A stretch of 39,949 nucleotides of DNA from Elusimicrobiota bacterium (GTDB lineage Bacteria > Elusimicrobiota > UBA8919), in NCBI GenBank assembly GCA_043816185.1, contig JBDRIG010000104.1, positions 1-39,949 of the forward strand. Direction: 5' to 3'. The position numbers and the translations under genes are program-made. This document shows, in pieces, positions 2,802 to 6,727 of this stretch. Every line of letters begins with the position of its first letter. Position 1 is the first letter of the stretch. The notes beneath the pieces were generated by a model. It worked only from the letters and a program-made list of their open reading frames with translations, had not been told where the DNA came from and ran no database searches.

Positions 2802-2807
2802 GTTTTT

Positions 2808-2927
<120 letters not shown>

Positions 2928-3003
2928 TTTATTTTTAAGTCGCAGACAGTTGGGTCCCGACAAGTCGGTATTAAAAATCAAACCCAACCGAGACAAAGGA
3001 AGG

Positions 3004-3040
3004 TATCTTCTTTTGCATTTTCAAAGAAGATATTTTTTTT
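3004..3040 (+). terminator. Rho-independent terminator of the rRNA operon
   Basis: 10-bp stem TATCTTCTTT/AAAGAAGATA followed by T8. Confidence 0.8.
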
Positions 3041-3287
3041 AATGAGGACGTTTAGTAAAGACTGAATATAAAGCCCATCATTCGGTTTCCATTTGCGTTT
3101 TAACAAGTTTTGGTAATAGTTCAGTCAGACTAAAAAATAGTCCTATTTCCGTATTATTTTTGTGGAGTGACACTGCTTGCGGTGTTACAATAACAGCACA
3201 AGTGCTGTCAATCCAAAATTTCCAAATCTCTCAGAATCATTAAACTGTTACTCAAAACTTAATTTTTACCATAGTAGGATGAGAAAT

Positions 3288-3956
3288 ATGAATGAAAATA
3301 AATCCAAAGATAAAATATTGAAAGTCAAACCACCAACTGATTACCCTCCAGAGGAAGGTTGTTACCTGCGTGGTAACGATTTTTCGCCAGTAGCGGTTGC
3401 GGTTATGCTAAATTACCCCCGAGAACAGACCCCACCTGAGATTGAACAGTTAATTAGGGTATCGATTGAAAAGGGCGCAGTTTTAGCCGGTACATTACAG
3501 ACCGAGAATATCGGGATTGAGAAAATCGTCACTAACATCGTGGCAAATCCAAACATCCGATATTTAGTTCTTTGTGGAACCGAGGTTGCTATGCATAACT
3601 CAGGGGATGCGCTTAAATGCCTCCTAGAAAATGGTGTCAATGAAAGGCGTACCATTGTTGGTTCTAAAGCCATAACTCCATATCTTTTTAATATACCCCT
3701 TGAATCTATTAAACGGTTCAGAAAACAGTTAACATTGATAAATCTGTTAAACGAGATGAATCCCGAAGTTGTGGAAAAGGCAGTATGGTCTTGTTATCAG
3801 GAAGAACCAACTAAATTTCAGAATTACACACTCAATGATCCAGGGGCATATCCTGAGTCAGCAATATGTTCTAAGCTTACCTGTCGTATTAAAAAACCCC
3901 AGGAGATTGAAGATTGGGAGATTGACGATATCTTAAAACAAATAGGAGGTGAGTAA
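3288..3956 (+). CDS. MtrA/MtxA-family (tetrahydromethanopterin S-methyltransferase subunit A-like) corrinoid protein, soluble
   Basis: YPPEEG.Y..G...SPVAV, GTLQTENIGIEKIVTNIVANPNIRYLVLCGTEVAMHNSG, IVGS....PYL.NIP.E.I.RFRKQ, DPGAYPE match MtrA motifs; no C-terminal TM anchor. Start placed at ATG 3288 (AGGA upstream); 3279 is possible. Confidence 0.88.
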   Translation: MNENKSKDKILKVKPPTDYPPEEGCYLRGNDFSPVAVAVMLNYPREQTPPEIEQLIRVSIEKGAVLAGTLQTENIGIEKIVTNIVANPNIRYLVLCGTEVAMHNSGDALKCLLENGVNERRTIVGSKAITPYLFNIPLESIKRFRKQLTLINLLNEMNPEVVEKAVWSCYQEEPTKFQNYTLNDPGAYPESAICSKLTCRIKKPQEIEDWEIDDILKQIGGE

Positions 3957-3958
3957 AA

Positions 3959-4378
3959 ATGGCAAAAGCAAGATGTGGCCGAATTCTTAACGAGGACATT
4001 TACATAGAAGAAGGAGATAAAACTACATTGTACTTCATCAATCAACTCAGGGCTTATCAAGTGGTGTTAGCGGCACTTAAAGCCTTAGACCAAGATATCT
4101 GCCACGATGGGTGTAGTCTACCTTCAACAGTGAACAAAGTAGTTAAGAGATTGGATAAACTCAAAAACGACCTGGAAGTCTCAGATGTAGAGGCTGAGAA
4201 AAAAGAAAATCTGCTTTCAAAAGTAAACAAGTTTTTGGCAGATGCTAACAGGTTGCCCCAGGATACATCCCAAACTTGCCGAAAGTCGGCAGGGGAGTGT
4301 ATAATCGGGTCGGGTTGCTTTGCGACAGGAGCTTTAAATCTCATAGATATTATTGAGCCAAAGGCTCCAAAAATCTAA
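3959..4378 (+). CDS. Hypothetical Cys-rich helical protein (paralog of next gene)
   Basis: 139-aa ORF, AGGAGGTG RBS, 2 nt after the mtrA-like stop; motifs IC-x3-C and C-x6-C-x5-CF. Confidence 0.85.
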   Translation: MAKARCGRILNEDIYIEEGDKTTLYFINQLRAYQVVLAALKALDQDICHDGCSLPSTVNKVVKRLDKLKNDLEVSDVEAEKKENLLSKVNKFLADANRLPQDTSQTCRKSAGECIIGSGCFATGALNLIDIIEPKAPKI

Positions 4379-4398
4379 AAAGAAAGTGGGTGATAAAC

Positions 4399-4743
4399 AT
4401 GCAGACAGAAGCTTTAGAGAATCAAATACAAGGGCTAAACATTGTGCTCGGTGCTCTTCAATCTGCCACAGGTGAGATCTGCAAAAACTGCATCGGTCTT
4501 GAAGGAGCAAAGACTAAGGTGGGTAAAATGTCAAAAAAACTCGGCATGGATTTGCAGGCTGCAGGGATTTGTTGTGAGAAGACAAAGGCAGATTTACAGG
4601 CTCGCATAGATAGTATTTCTAAGGCAGCCGAAGAACTTGAGGTAGCAGAAGAATGCGAATGCCAGAAGACTGCTAAAAACTGTAAGATGGGAGAAGCGTG
4701 TTTTGTAAATGCTGTAATAGAGTTGATGAAACTCGTCCAGTAA
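4399..4743 (+). CDS. Hypothetical Cys-rich helical protein (paralog of previous gene)
   Basis: 114-aa ORF from ATG 4399 with GGGTGA RBS; 8 Cys; motifs IC-x2-C, CC, C-x6-C-x5-CF. Confidence 0.85.
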   Translation: MQTEALENQIQGLNIVLGALQSATGEICKNCIGLEGAKTKVGKMSKKLGMDLQAAGICCEKTKADLQARIDSISKAAEELEVAEECECQKTAKNCKMGEACFVNAVIELMKLVQ

Positions 4744-4855
4744 TGTTTGTTCTCAGGCATGCGTGAGGGAGAAGGTTCTGCACTCTTCTCTTAATTCCCT
4801 TGAGCGTTACTTTCCCCTCACACTTTTTATAAATAATAATTAGGAGGTGCTGAAA

Positions 4856-5818
4856 ATGAGAAAATATTATGTTTTTACAGCATTTACTTTGCTATTAGCC
4901 GCTATCAGCATAAATATGGCTTATGGCTGTTCTAATCGCGGGTTAGAAAAAGTCACTCTAAGAATTGAGGGAATGAATTCATCCTGTTACGCTCCGATTA
5001 TGCAGGATGCTTTGTTGAAGATTGGAGGCGTTAAAAAAGCTTCTGTAAACTTTGAAAATGCTGAGGCATTGGTTGAGTTTGAGGCTGGCGAAGTTACCGT
5101 TGATCAGCTAATTCAAGTAGTGAAAAAAGCCGGTTATAATGCTCTGGTTAAAGAGACAGTCAATGAAGTTAAAGAAACAGTCAATAAATGTGAAGAAACT
5201 ACGAATAAGAATATAAGTAGTACAAAAAGTAATTATCTACCTTTAATAATCGGGATATTTCTATCAATTGTGTTAGTTTTTGCATGCCTAAAAATAAAAG
5301 TAATCACAAGTCATAAGACTATGTTGAGAATAGTAAAGCAGGCATTCGCCACTAAGTTGTCCCTGATAATTGGCTTAGCATTTGGTATAATTTATGCTTT
5401 CATATACCTAACTCTTGGCCACAAGATAGCGTACACTATCAACGGCTGGGTAGTTAATATGACAGGATCGGATCTTCTGGCTGTTTTGGTTATGGCTTTT
5501 TTGATTGCAATTGTGATGGCACTTTTTACCTATGCTACTAAGAAATGTGGAATTAGCAAATCAAAAAAGTCTGGCGTTGGACTTTTAGGAATATTATTTG
5601 CATTACTTGTATCATTTGGCGCTTGTTGTGGACCAATTATTATTTCACTAATCGGCGTTGGAGCCTCCATGATTTTAGCTAAATATAGTGGTTTATTTGT
5701 ACCTGTTTCCATTATTTTATTAGTAGGAGGTATAATTCTTAATATGAGAACTATAGAAAAAGAGGAAAAATGTGTGTGTTGTACCCCTGATGACGACATT
5801 AAATTAAAGAAAGAATGA
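4856..5818 (+). CDS. Heavy-metal-associated (HMA/MerP-like) domain fused to a multi-TM domain with a MerT-like CC..P motif
   Basis: AGGAGGTG RBS; signal-like N-terminus; VTLRIEGM...GVKKASVNFE...AGY HMA fold; about 5 hydrophobic segments incl. SFGACCGP; C-terminal CVCC. Confidence 0.8.
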   Translation: MRKYYVFTAFTLLLAAISINMAYGCSNRGLEKVTLRIEGMNSSCYAPIMQDALLKIGGVKKASVNFENAEALVEFEAGEVTVDQLIQVVKKAGYNALVKETVNEVKETVNKCEETTNKNISSTKSNYLPLIIGIFLSIVLVFACLKIKVITSHKTMLRIVKQAFATKLSLIIGLAFGIIYAFIYLTLGHKIAYTINGWVVNMTGSDLLAVLVMAFLIAIVMALFTYATKKCGISKSKKSGVGLLGILFALLVSFGACCGPIIISLIGVGASMILAKYSGLFVPVSIILLVGGIILNMRTIEKEEKCVCCTPDDDIKLKKE

Positions 5819-5834
5819 GAGGAGGTGAAGAAAC

Positions 5835-5975
5835 ATGGCCGAACGTCTTTGTGGACTCACAGGCAAAAAGCTAAACTTTCCTGGGGATTGTAAGAAGTGC
5901 GAGTATCTAAAACCTCGGGGAAAGATGAACTGTTGCACCTATAAGGGACCTGTCAAGAAGAGTTGTTGCAAGTAA
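5835..5975 (+). CDS. Small Cys-rich (metallothionein-like) peptide, 46 aa, not in ORF track
   Basis: GAGGAGGTGA RBS 6 nt before ATG; translation MAERLCGLTGKKLNFPGDCKKCEYLKPRGKMNCCTYKGPVKKSCCK. Confidence 0.75.
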   Translation: MAERLCGLTGKKLNFPGDCKKCEYLKPRGKMNCCTYKGPVKKSCCK

Positions 5976-6055
5976 TGGCAAACAAAAGAAGCGGGCTTGC
6001 AACTTCACTTAACCCGGGCTTTGCGGCTCCGTTCCACTTCGCCTAAACCGCCTGC

Positions 6056-6180
6056 GAGGGAATGGAGGGAATTGGAGGGAATGGGGACAGTCCCCTTATT
6101 TTCGCGAATTAAATCGCGAATAATTGCTCACGAATAAAGGCAAATATCACGAAAAAGGCGCGAATAAATATTCGTGATAG
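6056..6180. repeat. Repeat junction: 3x GAGGGAAT(T)G, palindrome GGGGACAGTCCCC, then ~12-nt CGCGAAT/CACGAA units
   Basis: Read directly; perfect 6-bp inverted repeat at 6083-6095. Confidence 0.65.
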
Positions 6181-6193
6181 GAGCGAAGCGACA

Positions 6194-6727
6194 ATGATTA
6201 AAACCAAACAGGAAAAACATGAGTTTGTAAAGTCGTTTGAAAAAGAAATAACGGCGGCGAAGAATTTTTGTTTTGCCGGTTATCAGGGTCTGACAGTTAA
6301 AGAACTTGAAGATTTAAGAAAAAAGGTGAAATCTACCAATGCAGAATTTCGTGTTATTAAAAATCGTCTCGTCGCAAAAGTTCTCAAAAATCTTACCTGC
6401 CCGCCGTTCGTCAGGCAGGAAATTGCTCATTTGGACGAGCATCTCAAAGGTCCAACCGCAATAGTTTTGGAAAAGGGCGACCCTGTTAAAACAATTAAAA
6501 CGCTTTTCATATTCTCAAAAAATAACAATAAACTAAAAATAAAGGCAGGTTTTTTTGATAACAAATTTTTGTCAGCAGATGATATGATGAGAGTTGCATC
6601 TTTGCCTTCAAAAGAACAACTTATAGCACAGGTTGTTTTTGGTATATCAACGCCGCTTGTTCGTCTGATGAATGTCTTAAACGCACCAATGAGAAATTTG
6701 GTTTTGGTGTTGAAACAGGTGAAGTAA
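6194..6727 (+). CDS. rplJ: 50S ribosomal protein L10
   Basis: YQGLTVKELEDLRK, VIKNRL, LKGPTAI, LPSKEQLIAQ. Confidence 0.95.
   Translation: MIKTKQEKHEFVKSFEKEITAAKNFCFAGYQGLTVKELEDLRKKVKSTNAEFRVIKNRLVAKVLKNLTCPPFVRQEIAHLDEHLKGPTAIVLEKGDPVKTIKTLFIFSKNNNKLKIKAGFFDNKFLSADDMMRVASLPSKEQLIAQVVFGISTPLVRLMNVLNAPMRNLVLVLKQVK

Follow-up and report, generated by a model that had tools for sequence, protein, structure and literature searches.

An MtrA-like corrinoid protein with rare cysteine-rich partners in a horizontally acquired module of an Elusimicrobiota bacterium: a possible system for methyl transfer to or from soft metal(loid)s

Between the 5S ribosomal RNA (rRNA) gene and rplJ of an Elusimicrobiota bacterium (GTDB lineage UBA8919; NCBI GenBank assembly GCA_043816185.1) lies a horizontally acquired module of five genes, whose core joins an MtrA-like, predicted corrinoid protein to two paralogous cysteine-rich proteins, CysA and CysB, that look like obligate partners of this MtrA clade. 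The stretch analysed here, called the window, is the 39,949 nucleotides of contig JBDRIG010000104.1 (G000:C104 in this study), from a genome of 1.44 Mb that is 94% complete. We tentatively read the module as corrinoid-based handling of a soft metal or metalloid by methyl transfer, a reading that we hold with somewhat less than even confidence. A preliminary description of this DNA had listed five co-oriented, closely spaced genes; all five open reading frames (ORFs) are confirmed on the + strand within 3288-5975, where they occupy the interval from 5S to rplJ. The module comprises the following features.

3288-3956, + strand: MtrA-like gene, predicted soluble corrinoid protein of 222 amino acids (PF04208, NF002126).
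Codon 3504-3506, + strand: Glu73, the equivalent of Glu54 by alignment to the protein of PDB entry 5LAA.
Codon 3594-3596, + strand: His103, predicted lower axial cobalt ligand, aligned to His84 of the 5LAA protein.
3959-4378, + strand: CysA, A-type helical four-cysteine partner of 139 amino acids (alignments A1 and A2; AlphaFold2 (AF2) model).
4390-4743, + strand: CysB, B-type paralog of 117 amino acids with 8 cysteines (paralogy to CysA; alternative start ATG 4399).
4744-4855, + strand: structured spacer with a stable hairpin, a U-run and then the ribosome site of the next gene.
4856-5818, + strand: membrane protein of 320 amino acids with a heavy-metal-associated (HMA) domain (PF00403, hydropathy; alternative start GTG 4847).
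5835-5975, + strand: cysteine-rich peptide of 46 amino acids, with 7 cysteines that include two vicinal pairs (recurring homologues).
6083-6103, + strand: terminator-like hairpin (6083-6095) and T-run closing the operon (terminator scan).

By its sequence, the first gene encodes a soluble MtrA-family protein that keeps the cobalt-ligand histidine and is predicted to bind a cobamide. The MtrA-like identity proposed earlier is borne out by scores above the cut-offs of PF04208 (138.2 bits, E 2.9e-40, cut-off 25) and of NCBIfam NF002126, the short soluble MtrA subfamily (184.4 bits, cut-off 161), and by a match to 5LAA (E 1.9e-35); against the mtrA equivalog TIGR01111 the protein scores 124.8 bits, below the cut-off of 249. 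The codon that had been picked out as encoding the ligand is indeed that of His103, which is invariant in 33 of 33 aligned family members from many phyla (mean column identity 65%); the position of Glu73 is alanine in some clade members. In the 5LAA protein, cobalamin is held base-off/His-on via His84 and braced by Glu54, and the paper on it describes tight cobalamin binding by isolated cytoplasmic MtrA homologues, whose partner is not known, and of bacterial homologues notes only that they exist (PMC4915002). The ORF opens at TTG 3177, and homologues of 220-224 residues cover the query fully from the ATG at 3288. What had been said of the C-terminus holds in part: the membrane anchor is absent (there is no hydrophobic segment) and the acidic tail is real and clade-specific, but the C-x4-C motif (C194 and C199) is private to this copy, relatives having tryptophan at the second position. 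The stated absence of other mtr subunits likewise holds for MtrH, for which PF02007 has no match in the 94%-complete genome, MtrB-G not having been searched; with an acidic tail in place of a transmembrane helix, the protein does not classify as a subunit of a membrane MtrA-H complex.

The MtrA-like family is large, with 3699 homologues in a word-index search and 80 loci in a scan of species genomes that spans Acidobacteriota, Chloroflexota, Planctomycetota, Actinomycetota, Spirochaetota, Omnitrophota, Nitrospirota, several archaea and others. A plasmid collection held only distant proteins that combine MtrA with DUF4346 (36% identity), and no CysA. This distant MtrA-DUF4346 form also occurs as a fusion in a genome of the same phylum (L002, G017:C24), beside DsbD-like, thioredoxin-like and weakly ArsD-like genes, and on small Planococcus plasmids of cultured strains (L189).

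CysA and CysB, described earlier as two cysteine-rich paralogs, are indeed related to each other (phmmer E 1e-9 to 5e-10), and neither has a match in Pfam or NCBIfam or a relative in PDB. The invariant cysteines of CysA are C48, C107, C114 and C120, all four kept in 28 of 28 aligned members; those of CysB are C31, C91, C98 and C104, to which it adds a CxxC and a vicinal CC. Searched against PDB sequences, a profile of the family found at best a Rad50 coiled coil (E 0.058), and Pfam scans of 28 members gave nothing meaningful, with PF04060, an Fe-S domain discussed below, in 0 of 28. A profile search of 1.84 billion representative proteins recovered 42 clusters, of which 37 have E values of 1e-10 or lower; on these sequence grounds the family is real but rare. 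The AF2 model of CysA (predicted local distance difference test score, 85; predicted template modelling score, 0.79) is a three-helix bundle followed by a 23-residue loop with three of the cysteines and a fourth helix. Foldseek against PDB (best E 0.54), a VIA wide search (best Z 9.6, to BAG domains and designed bundles) and the ESM Atlas gave no usable match for CysA. A complex prediction for the MtrA-like protein with CysA scored 0.19 (mark 0.32) and weighs neither way. One paralog in the family has a twin-arginine translocation (TAT) signal (TIGR01409, 19.6 bits, cut-off 16.7), which fits export with a bound cofactor.

A metagenome scan seeded with Cys-domain alignment A1 returned 79 loci, 18 of which are not testable because the contig ends within 650 bp upstream (in one of them, L150, the contig end truncates a fusion, which the threshold used did not catch). 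An MtrA-like gene is adjacent or fused in 60 of the 61 testable loci: within 300 bp in 35, fused in 24 and farther away in 1. The single testable locus that has room for MtrA but lacks it, L129, holds only a truncated CysA. Among 82 genome loci of the MtrA-like gene, the Cys domain is found in six (the window, L003, L005, L006, L012 and L018), each time directly 3' of the MtrA-like gene, and in L006, L012 and L018 the A-type domain is fused to it in one reading frame of 413-475 amino acids; three more fusions are present among the representative proteins. CysB follows CysA, or the MtrA-CysA fusion, in related loci. The preliminary description had named in advance a failure of the gene association to recur in other genomes as grounds for giving up the module, but the association does recur, in 60 of the 61 metagenome loci that allow the test and in all 5 of the other genome loci with the Cys domain. 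The Cys paralogs thus look like obligate partners of this MtrA clade, and we reject a chance gene neighbourhood on the recurrent adjacency and fusion across loci.

The nearest relatives of the window protein have a different genomic setting. All ORFs within 4 kb of the MtrA-like gene at the 82 genome loci were clustered and named by Pfam, and the neighbours, counted by locus, include ACR3-type SBF pumps (35), DsbD_2 (19), ArsR (17), ArsP permease (17), Thioredoxin_3 (13), ArsM-type Methyltransf_31 (11), ArsC (LMWPc; 8) and DGC (6); most of the MtrA-like family therefore sits in arsenic-resistance operons. Among loci without the Cys domain that have a near-full-length MtrA, 42 of 69 have ars genes within 4 kb. 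A tree was built from 110 MtrA domains, taken from 126 loci that cover at least 170 profile positions (shorter fragments were left out) after removal of 16 metagenome rows that shared more than 90% identity with a row retained. One branch, with a Shimodaira-Hasegawa-like approximate likelihood ratio test (SH-aLRT) support of 100, splits 42 rows from 68. The smaller side consists of 41 Cys-linked rows and L004, whose contig ends inside the gene; on the larger side, ars genes accompany 42 rows, and the context of the remaining 26 is different or truncated. Cys linkage is a matter of selection for the metagenome rows but not for the six genome rows, which join that clade all the same. When methanogen MtrA from three genomes was used to root the tree, the outgroup fell inside the Cys-linked group on a long branch (1.27 changes per column, SH-aLRT 98), and this root is not trusted.

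The soluble MtrA-like proteins of ars operons are 51-65% identical to the window protein and share its C-terminal extension through a 'TWR..QP' segment. Beyond that segment the two clades part: the window's clade ends in a short acidic tail and the ars clade in a basic helix or a PF04060 Fe-S domain, and the neighbours are CysA/CysB without ars genes in the one and ACR3, ArsP, ArsR, ArsC and ArsM genes in the other. The window protein does not belong to the ars-linked clade, since it lies on the opposite side of the SH-aLRT 100 branch and its island has no ars gene. PF04060 stands C-terminal to the MtrA domain in ars-linked Dehalococcoidia members (L047:6001-6837, L043:2931-3767 and L077:5890-6837; E 6e-12 to 2e-11), and CysA, where fused, occupies the same C-terminal position. 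Mainly because CysA is fused where the sister clade carries PF04060, we read CysA/CysB as the probable redox or metal centre of the module.

The gene content of the host suggests what such a module could draw on. The genome encodes carbon monoxide dehydrogenase (CODH), acetyl-CoA synthase (ACS), a subunit of the corrinoid iron-sulfur protein (CFeSP), two pterin-binding proteins, CobS and six ORFs with B12-binding domains; judged from these genes, the host is a corrinoid-using anaerobe of the Wood-Ljungdahl type with possible methyl donors. We considered whether the MtrA-like protein is the corrinoid protein of that pathway and rejected this, because the host has its own canonical AcsC (PF03599 and PF04060) beside ACS and CODH. 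The module could instead handle corrinoids or cobalt as such, an alternative already named in the preliminary description, with the MtrA-like protein storing, escorting or remodelling cobamides, the HMA-membrane protein importing cobalt and the Cys proteins delivering metal. The host, which makes or remodels cobamides, has no fewer than seven proteins of corrinoid type; this would suit such a role, as would the tight cobalamin binding by cytoplasmic MtrA homologues of otherwise unassigned partnership cited above. But a search with Rfam (E up to 1) over 2900-6250 found no cobalamin riboswitch or any other, the weak L10 leader described below being the sole match; no cbi, cob or btu gene recurs beside the core; and the sister clade sits in ars rather than cob operons. 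Vicinal cysteine pairs and four-cysteine sites, moreover, favour soft ions over Co(II). We regard a cobalt or corrinoid function as highly improbable.

Downstream of the core, the fourth gene encodes an HMA domain as described before (PF00403, 29.5 bits, cut-off 24.8). In a hydropathy scan the protein has an N-terminal hydrophobic, signal-like segment, a 98-residue hydrophilic part with the HMA domain and about five hydrophobic helices; a vicinal CC lies in the fourth helix, and the chain ends in a charged CxCC tail. Should the first segment be a signal peptide, the HMA domain would face outward and the tail inward, the arrangement of MerP and MerT. The further claim that the membrane part is MerT-like has no HMM support, residues 121-323 having no PF02411 match at E up to 10; the HMA part scores 41.8 bits against MerP TIGR02052 (cut-off 92.6) and is also below the cut-off of the MerTP-fusion model. 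The protein resembles the membrane protein of L003 (E 7e-5), which itself scores 19.4 bits against MerT (cut-off 32.9). The membrane part has only 4 homologues beside itself among 5.8 billion proteins, to which the word-index search added none, and in the ESM Atlas it matched unnamed clusters only, below 0.9.

The peptide, whose 7 cysteines are as first described, has homologues in 26 of the 79 metagenome loci; two genome loci, L018 (Nitrospirota) and L082 (a metagenome-assembled genome (MAG) labelled Bathyarchaeota), also have one, and every time it lies beside the MtrA/Cys core. Other accessories in the 79 loci are HMA proteins (11), a CC-membrane protein or its zinc-ribbon-like domain standing alone (14) and a lipoprotein (5). 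Where at least 700 bp follow the core, at least one of the peptide, HMA and CC-membrane genes is present in 26 of 49 loci (14 of 17 close relatives and 12 of 32 others), so that these genes are common but optional and not essential to the core. The remaining neighbours include recombinases, histidine kinases and insertion-sequence genes; no corrinoid-loading methyltransferase, activase or regulator recurs among the 79 loci.

In 3 of the 79 loci (L091:1270-3099, L129:1026-2849 and L132:368-2191) the HMA protein is a chain of 607-609 amino acids, with a signal-like start, two HMA domains with SCCA-type loops, cysteine-bearing helical repeats and an ArsM-like methyltransferase domain (NF008823, E 1.9e-69, 234 bits, cut-off 263), in which one of the three cysteine positions of ArsM is apparently replaced. 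The TAT-signal paralog of the Cys family (L132:2222-2734, and P0146) directly follows such an HMA-ArsM-like gene.

TusA-like domains with a CC motif are fused to the core or lie beside it in several loci (PF01206, E 1e-6 to 7e-4). They suggest another possibility, namely that the corrinoid methylates sulfide, polysulfide, selenide or telluride on relays of the Cys-persulfide type, yielding volatile methyl chalcogenides. Pointing the same way, an AhpC/thioredoxin-like lipoprotein is among the neighbours at L129, and the best NCBIfam match of the HMA domain, below its cut-off, is the family of UxxU metal-binding (seleno)proteins. Yet the TusA matches are weak (29.0 bits against a cut-off of 28.6; 27.5; 19.8) and the window has no TusA-like domain, and HMA domains together with the ArsM-like fusion favour metals or metalloids. 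Handling of sulfur or another chalcogen in this way, which overlaps the reading we favour and differs from it in the element alone, seems improbable.

A more serious competitor is that the core has an organic substrate. The MtrA-like protein would then be a CFeSP-like methyl carrier for organic one-carbon (C1) or methylated compounds, with CysA/CysB as its Fe-S redox partner, shuttling between host methyltransferases, and the metal genes would be an unrelated homeostasis cassette on the same mobile DNA. The fusion of CysA where the sister clade has a CFeSP-type Fe-S domain is compatible with this, as are the CODH/ACS, CFeSP subunit, pterin-binding proteins and CobS of the host and the absence of the accessory metal genes from 23 of the 49 loci with room for them. 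In addition, an Anaerolineae MAG (L005:179-7172) has its MtrA-like gene, together with a shortened Cys-domain ORF, placed between cooS and acsB. Against a C1 carrier, the neighbours of the core in the 79 metagenome loci include no recurring methyltransferase of the MtrH, MtaB, MttB or MeTr type, the closest clade is linked to ars operons and not to C1 genes, and a canonical CFeSP is already present in the host. Unrelated proteins with vicinal cysteines (the peptide, zinc-ribbon, CC-membrane, HMA and TusA-like CC forms) also recur beside the core, which exceeds what a hitch-hiking cassette would be expected to show. We think an organic substrate somewhat unlikely. Upstream of the L005 pair lie a Cys-less HMA protein and a small protein with a CxCxC motif that is seen again at the N-terminal end of the MtrA fusion in G017.

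What leads us to prefer a soft metal(loid) as the object of the module is the combination of repeated vicinal-Cys proteins, HMA domains, the ArsM-like fusion and the ars-linked sister clade. Gene content, conserved residues, the obligate linkage and the fusions of MtrA, CysA and CysB, the split of the clades and the insertion of the island are observed; for corrinoid binding, complex formation, the nature of the cysteine centre, topology, substrate and chemistry we infer the following scheme. The core would be a soluble, His-on corrinoid protein of the MtrA fold working with CysA and CysB, which would supply a metal or Fe-S centre of the module's own. That centre might either feed electrons to the cobalt, keeping it as or returning it to Co(I), or hold the thiophilic substrate at the corrin. 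An optional outer layer formed by the exported HMA domain, the CC membrane helices, the cytoplasmic CxCC tail and the CC-rich peptide may relay a soft metal(loid) inward by thiol exchange, as MerP and MerT do for Hg(II); As, Sb, Hg, Se and Te are candidate elements. The corrinoid could then donate a methyl group to the bound element or accept one from it. Because the module encodes no methyltransferase, the methyl source would have to be a host enzyme, for example one of the two pterin-binding proteins. There is a chemical precedent: methylcobalamin methylates As(III) non-enzymatically in the presence of thiols and has been proposed as the donor in methanoarchaea (PMC6950371).

Several observations weigh against handling of a soft metal(loid). 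The metal context given in the preliminary description has indirect support from the sister clade, the ArsM-like fusions and the recurring peptide, HMA and vicinal-Cys membrane proteins, but the island itself has no ars or mer gene and no regulator gene, ArsR and MerR included. No ars-context row falls in the Cys-linked clade, so that the link to arsenic is by kinship only. Elsewhere in the 94%-complete genome, single-sequence phmmer searches found no ACR3, ArsR, ArsP, ArsC or ArsM-like protein and no match to Trx3 and DsbD_2 queries. The HMA loop of the window protein, SSCYAP, has a single cysteine where relatives have the vicinal pair of SCCA, the membrane part lacks the MerT match noted above, and the peptide and HMA-membrane genes are missing in the 23 loci already counted. 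The signal-like N-terminus of the ArsM-like fusion is hard to square with the use of S-adenosylmethionine (SAM), the module has no enzyme for loading the corrinoid with methyl, the L005 pair between cooS and acsB points to C1 metabolism, and fold searches with CysA gave generic three-helix bundles only.

Taken to its full extent, the proposal would be that anaerobes methylate or demethylate metal(loid)s by a third biological route, which runs through a corrinoid on the MtrA-like protein with CysA/CysB and needs neither HgcAB nor the SAM-dependent ArsM. A new kind of Fe-S or thiolate centre in CysA/CysB would serve both to reduce the cobalt and to bring As, Sb, Hg or a chalcogen to the methyl-corrinoid; the HMA-membrane protein and CC peptide would be a dedicated uptake relay, and the whole a unit that moves between phyla as a small island. 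In this complete form we consider the proposal unlikely.

The position of the module in the chromosome bears on its acquisition. The flanking features are as follows.

1-2686: 23S rRNA gene, partial at the contig start.
2809-2927: 5S rRNA.
2922-3045, + strand: L10-leader-like RNA, the left border of the island and outside the module (Rfam RF00557, 27.5 bits against a gathering score of 44, E 0.1).
3040-3287, + strand: left non-coding end of the island, presumably with the promoter (no counterpart in G005, G003, G002 and G004).
From 6194: rplJ, rplL and rpoB, then a long block of ribosomal-protein genes.

In genomes of the same family, 5S and the leader-like stretch continue directly into rplJ, and G005, G003, G002 and G004 have no counterpart of 3040-3287 between 5S/leader and rplJ. 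Window positions 2807-3039 align to G005 at 84%; because rplJ there starts 29 nt after the aligned stretch and here at 6194, about 3.1 kb (~3040-6164) is an insertion between the L10 leader and rplJ that contains exactly the five genes. PF04208 is present in 2 of 61 genomes of the phylum, the host's own included (59 of 60 relatives lack it), and a search of the second genome in the genus, which is 78% complete, did not find it. On related contigs a tyrosine recombinase gene lies immediately upstream of the MtrA-like gene; in the window, a repeat search found neither direct nor inverted repeats at the flanks that could indicate att sites. The stretches ~2700-2808 (the 23S-5S spacer) and ~6105-6180 (just before rplJ and abutting the right end of the island) have many scattered copies in the same-family genomes G008, G006 and G002, and both resemble dispersed repeats. 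The L10 leader is now 3.1 kb from rplJ, and since the island separates the two, rplJ-rplL autoregulation may be disturbed. In the 23S gene, the 3' 1184 model positions are spread across 2686 bases and two ORFs (370-876 and 1223-1678) encode LAGLIDADG homing endonucleases (PF00961, E 3e-18 and 1e-29), which together indicate that there are probably two intron-type insertions.

Within the module, the intergenic gaps are 2, 11, 112 and 16 nt, and ribosome sites of the AGGAGG type precede three of the genes. The ATG at 4856, behind a AGGAGGTG site, gives the 320-residue form of the HMA-membrane protein held in databases; the ORF list starts it at GTG 4847. The 112-nt spacer at 4744-4855 folds with a minimum free energy of -33.2 kcal/mol, compared with an average of -22.0 for shuffled versions (z -3.5), and none of 200 shuffles does as well; a simple terminator scan did not flag its hairpin, which separates the core genes from the HMA-peptide pair and may be an internal attenuator or a stabiliser. 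A simple sigma-70 scan found no site in 3040-3287 and was uninformative overall (9 sites against 8.7 expected). In close relatives (L087, L092, L099, L100, L105, L108, L109 and L113), a conserved stretch of about 75 nt lies directly 5' of the MtrA-like gene, is kept regardless of the DNA farther upstream and is probably the module's own promoter or operator; the upstream region in the window differs from it.

ArsM and corrinoid side reactions in methanogens account for only a part of the anoxic methylation and demethylation of arsenic and other soft elements, and to our knowledge HgcAB is the sole dedicated corrinoid system for a metal. The module described here offers a compact, mobile and defined three-gene core, in which natural fusions show which proteins cooperate; should its substrate prove organic, a corrinoid protein with thousands of bacterial relatives would still gain a new family of partners in CysA/CysB. 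The MtrA-like family is annotated already, without an assigned function in bacteria, and the Cys family and the module are new to the literature searched: a search that covered few of the subscription journals turned up no paper that describes this module or places bacterial MtrA homologues in an arsenic or metal context. Papers that matched 'MtrA' (on Shewanella and on vanadium) concern, judged by title or abstract, an unrelated cytochrome or other topics.

Compared with known systems, the window protein shares its domain with methanogen MtrA and the 5LAA protein, keeps the equivalents of His84 and Glu54, and is soluble like the cytoplasmic homologues. Unlike methanogen MtrA, it belongs to a bacterial host, in whose genome MtrH was not found (the search did not extend to MtrB-G), it has a 40-residue C-terminal extension ending in the acidic tail, and it has apparently obligate CysA/CysB partners. 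MerP and MerT resemble the predicted layout of the HMA-membrane protein in having an exported HMA domain, vicinal cysteines in a membrane helix and a cytoplasmic Cys cluster; here, in contrast, HMA comes first in the domain order, its loop is SCCA (SCY in the window) rather than CxxC, and there is no merA or merR. The likeness to ArsM is that an ArsM-like domain takes the place of the membrane part of the HMA protein in the three fusion loci, but ArsM itself is neither in the window nor, by phmmer, in the genome, and it uses SAM and not a corrinoid.

In HgcA a CFeSP-type corrinoid domain, whose lower ligand is Cys, is fused to a membrane domain, and HgcB is a ferredoxin with two [4Fe-4S] clusters and a C-terminal CC. 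The proposed logic of the module resembles that of this pair, with a corrinoid protein, a Cys-rich redox partner, vicinal cysteine pairs that would hand over the metal and a five-helix membrane part. It differs from HgcAB in that the corrinoid domain is PF04208, an MtrA fold with histidine, and that the membrane part belongs to an optional protein of its own; neither a Fer4-type ferredoxin nor CdhD is matched by any of the five proteins. With CFeSP (AcsC/AcsD) it would share the pairing of a corrinoid carrier and a Cys-bound cluster domain that activates it reductively, and the sister clade uses the very same PF04060, but the corrinoid fold differs and CysA/CysB do not match PF04060, the CX2CX4CX16C domain. 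The module would thus join CFeSP and HgcAB as a corrinoid protein with a cluster partner, built from different folds.

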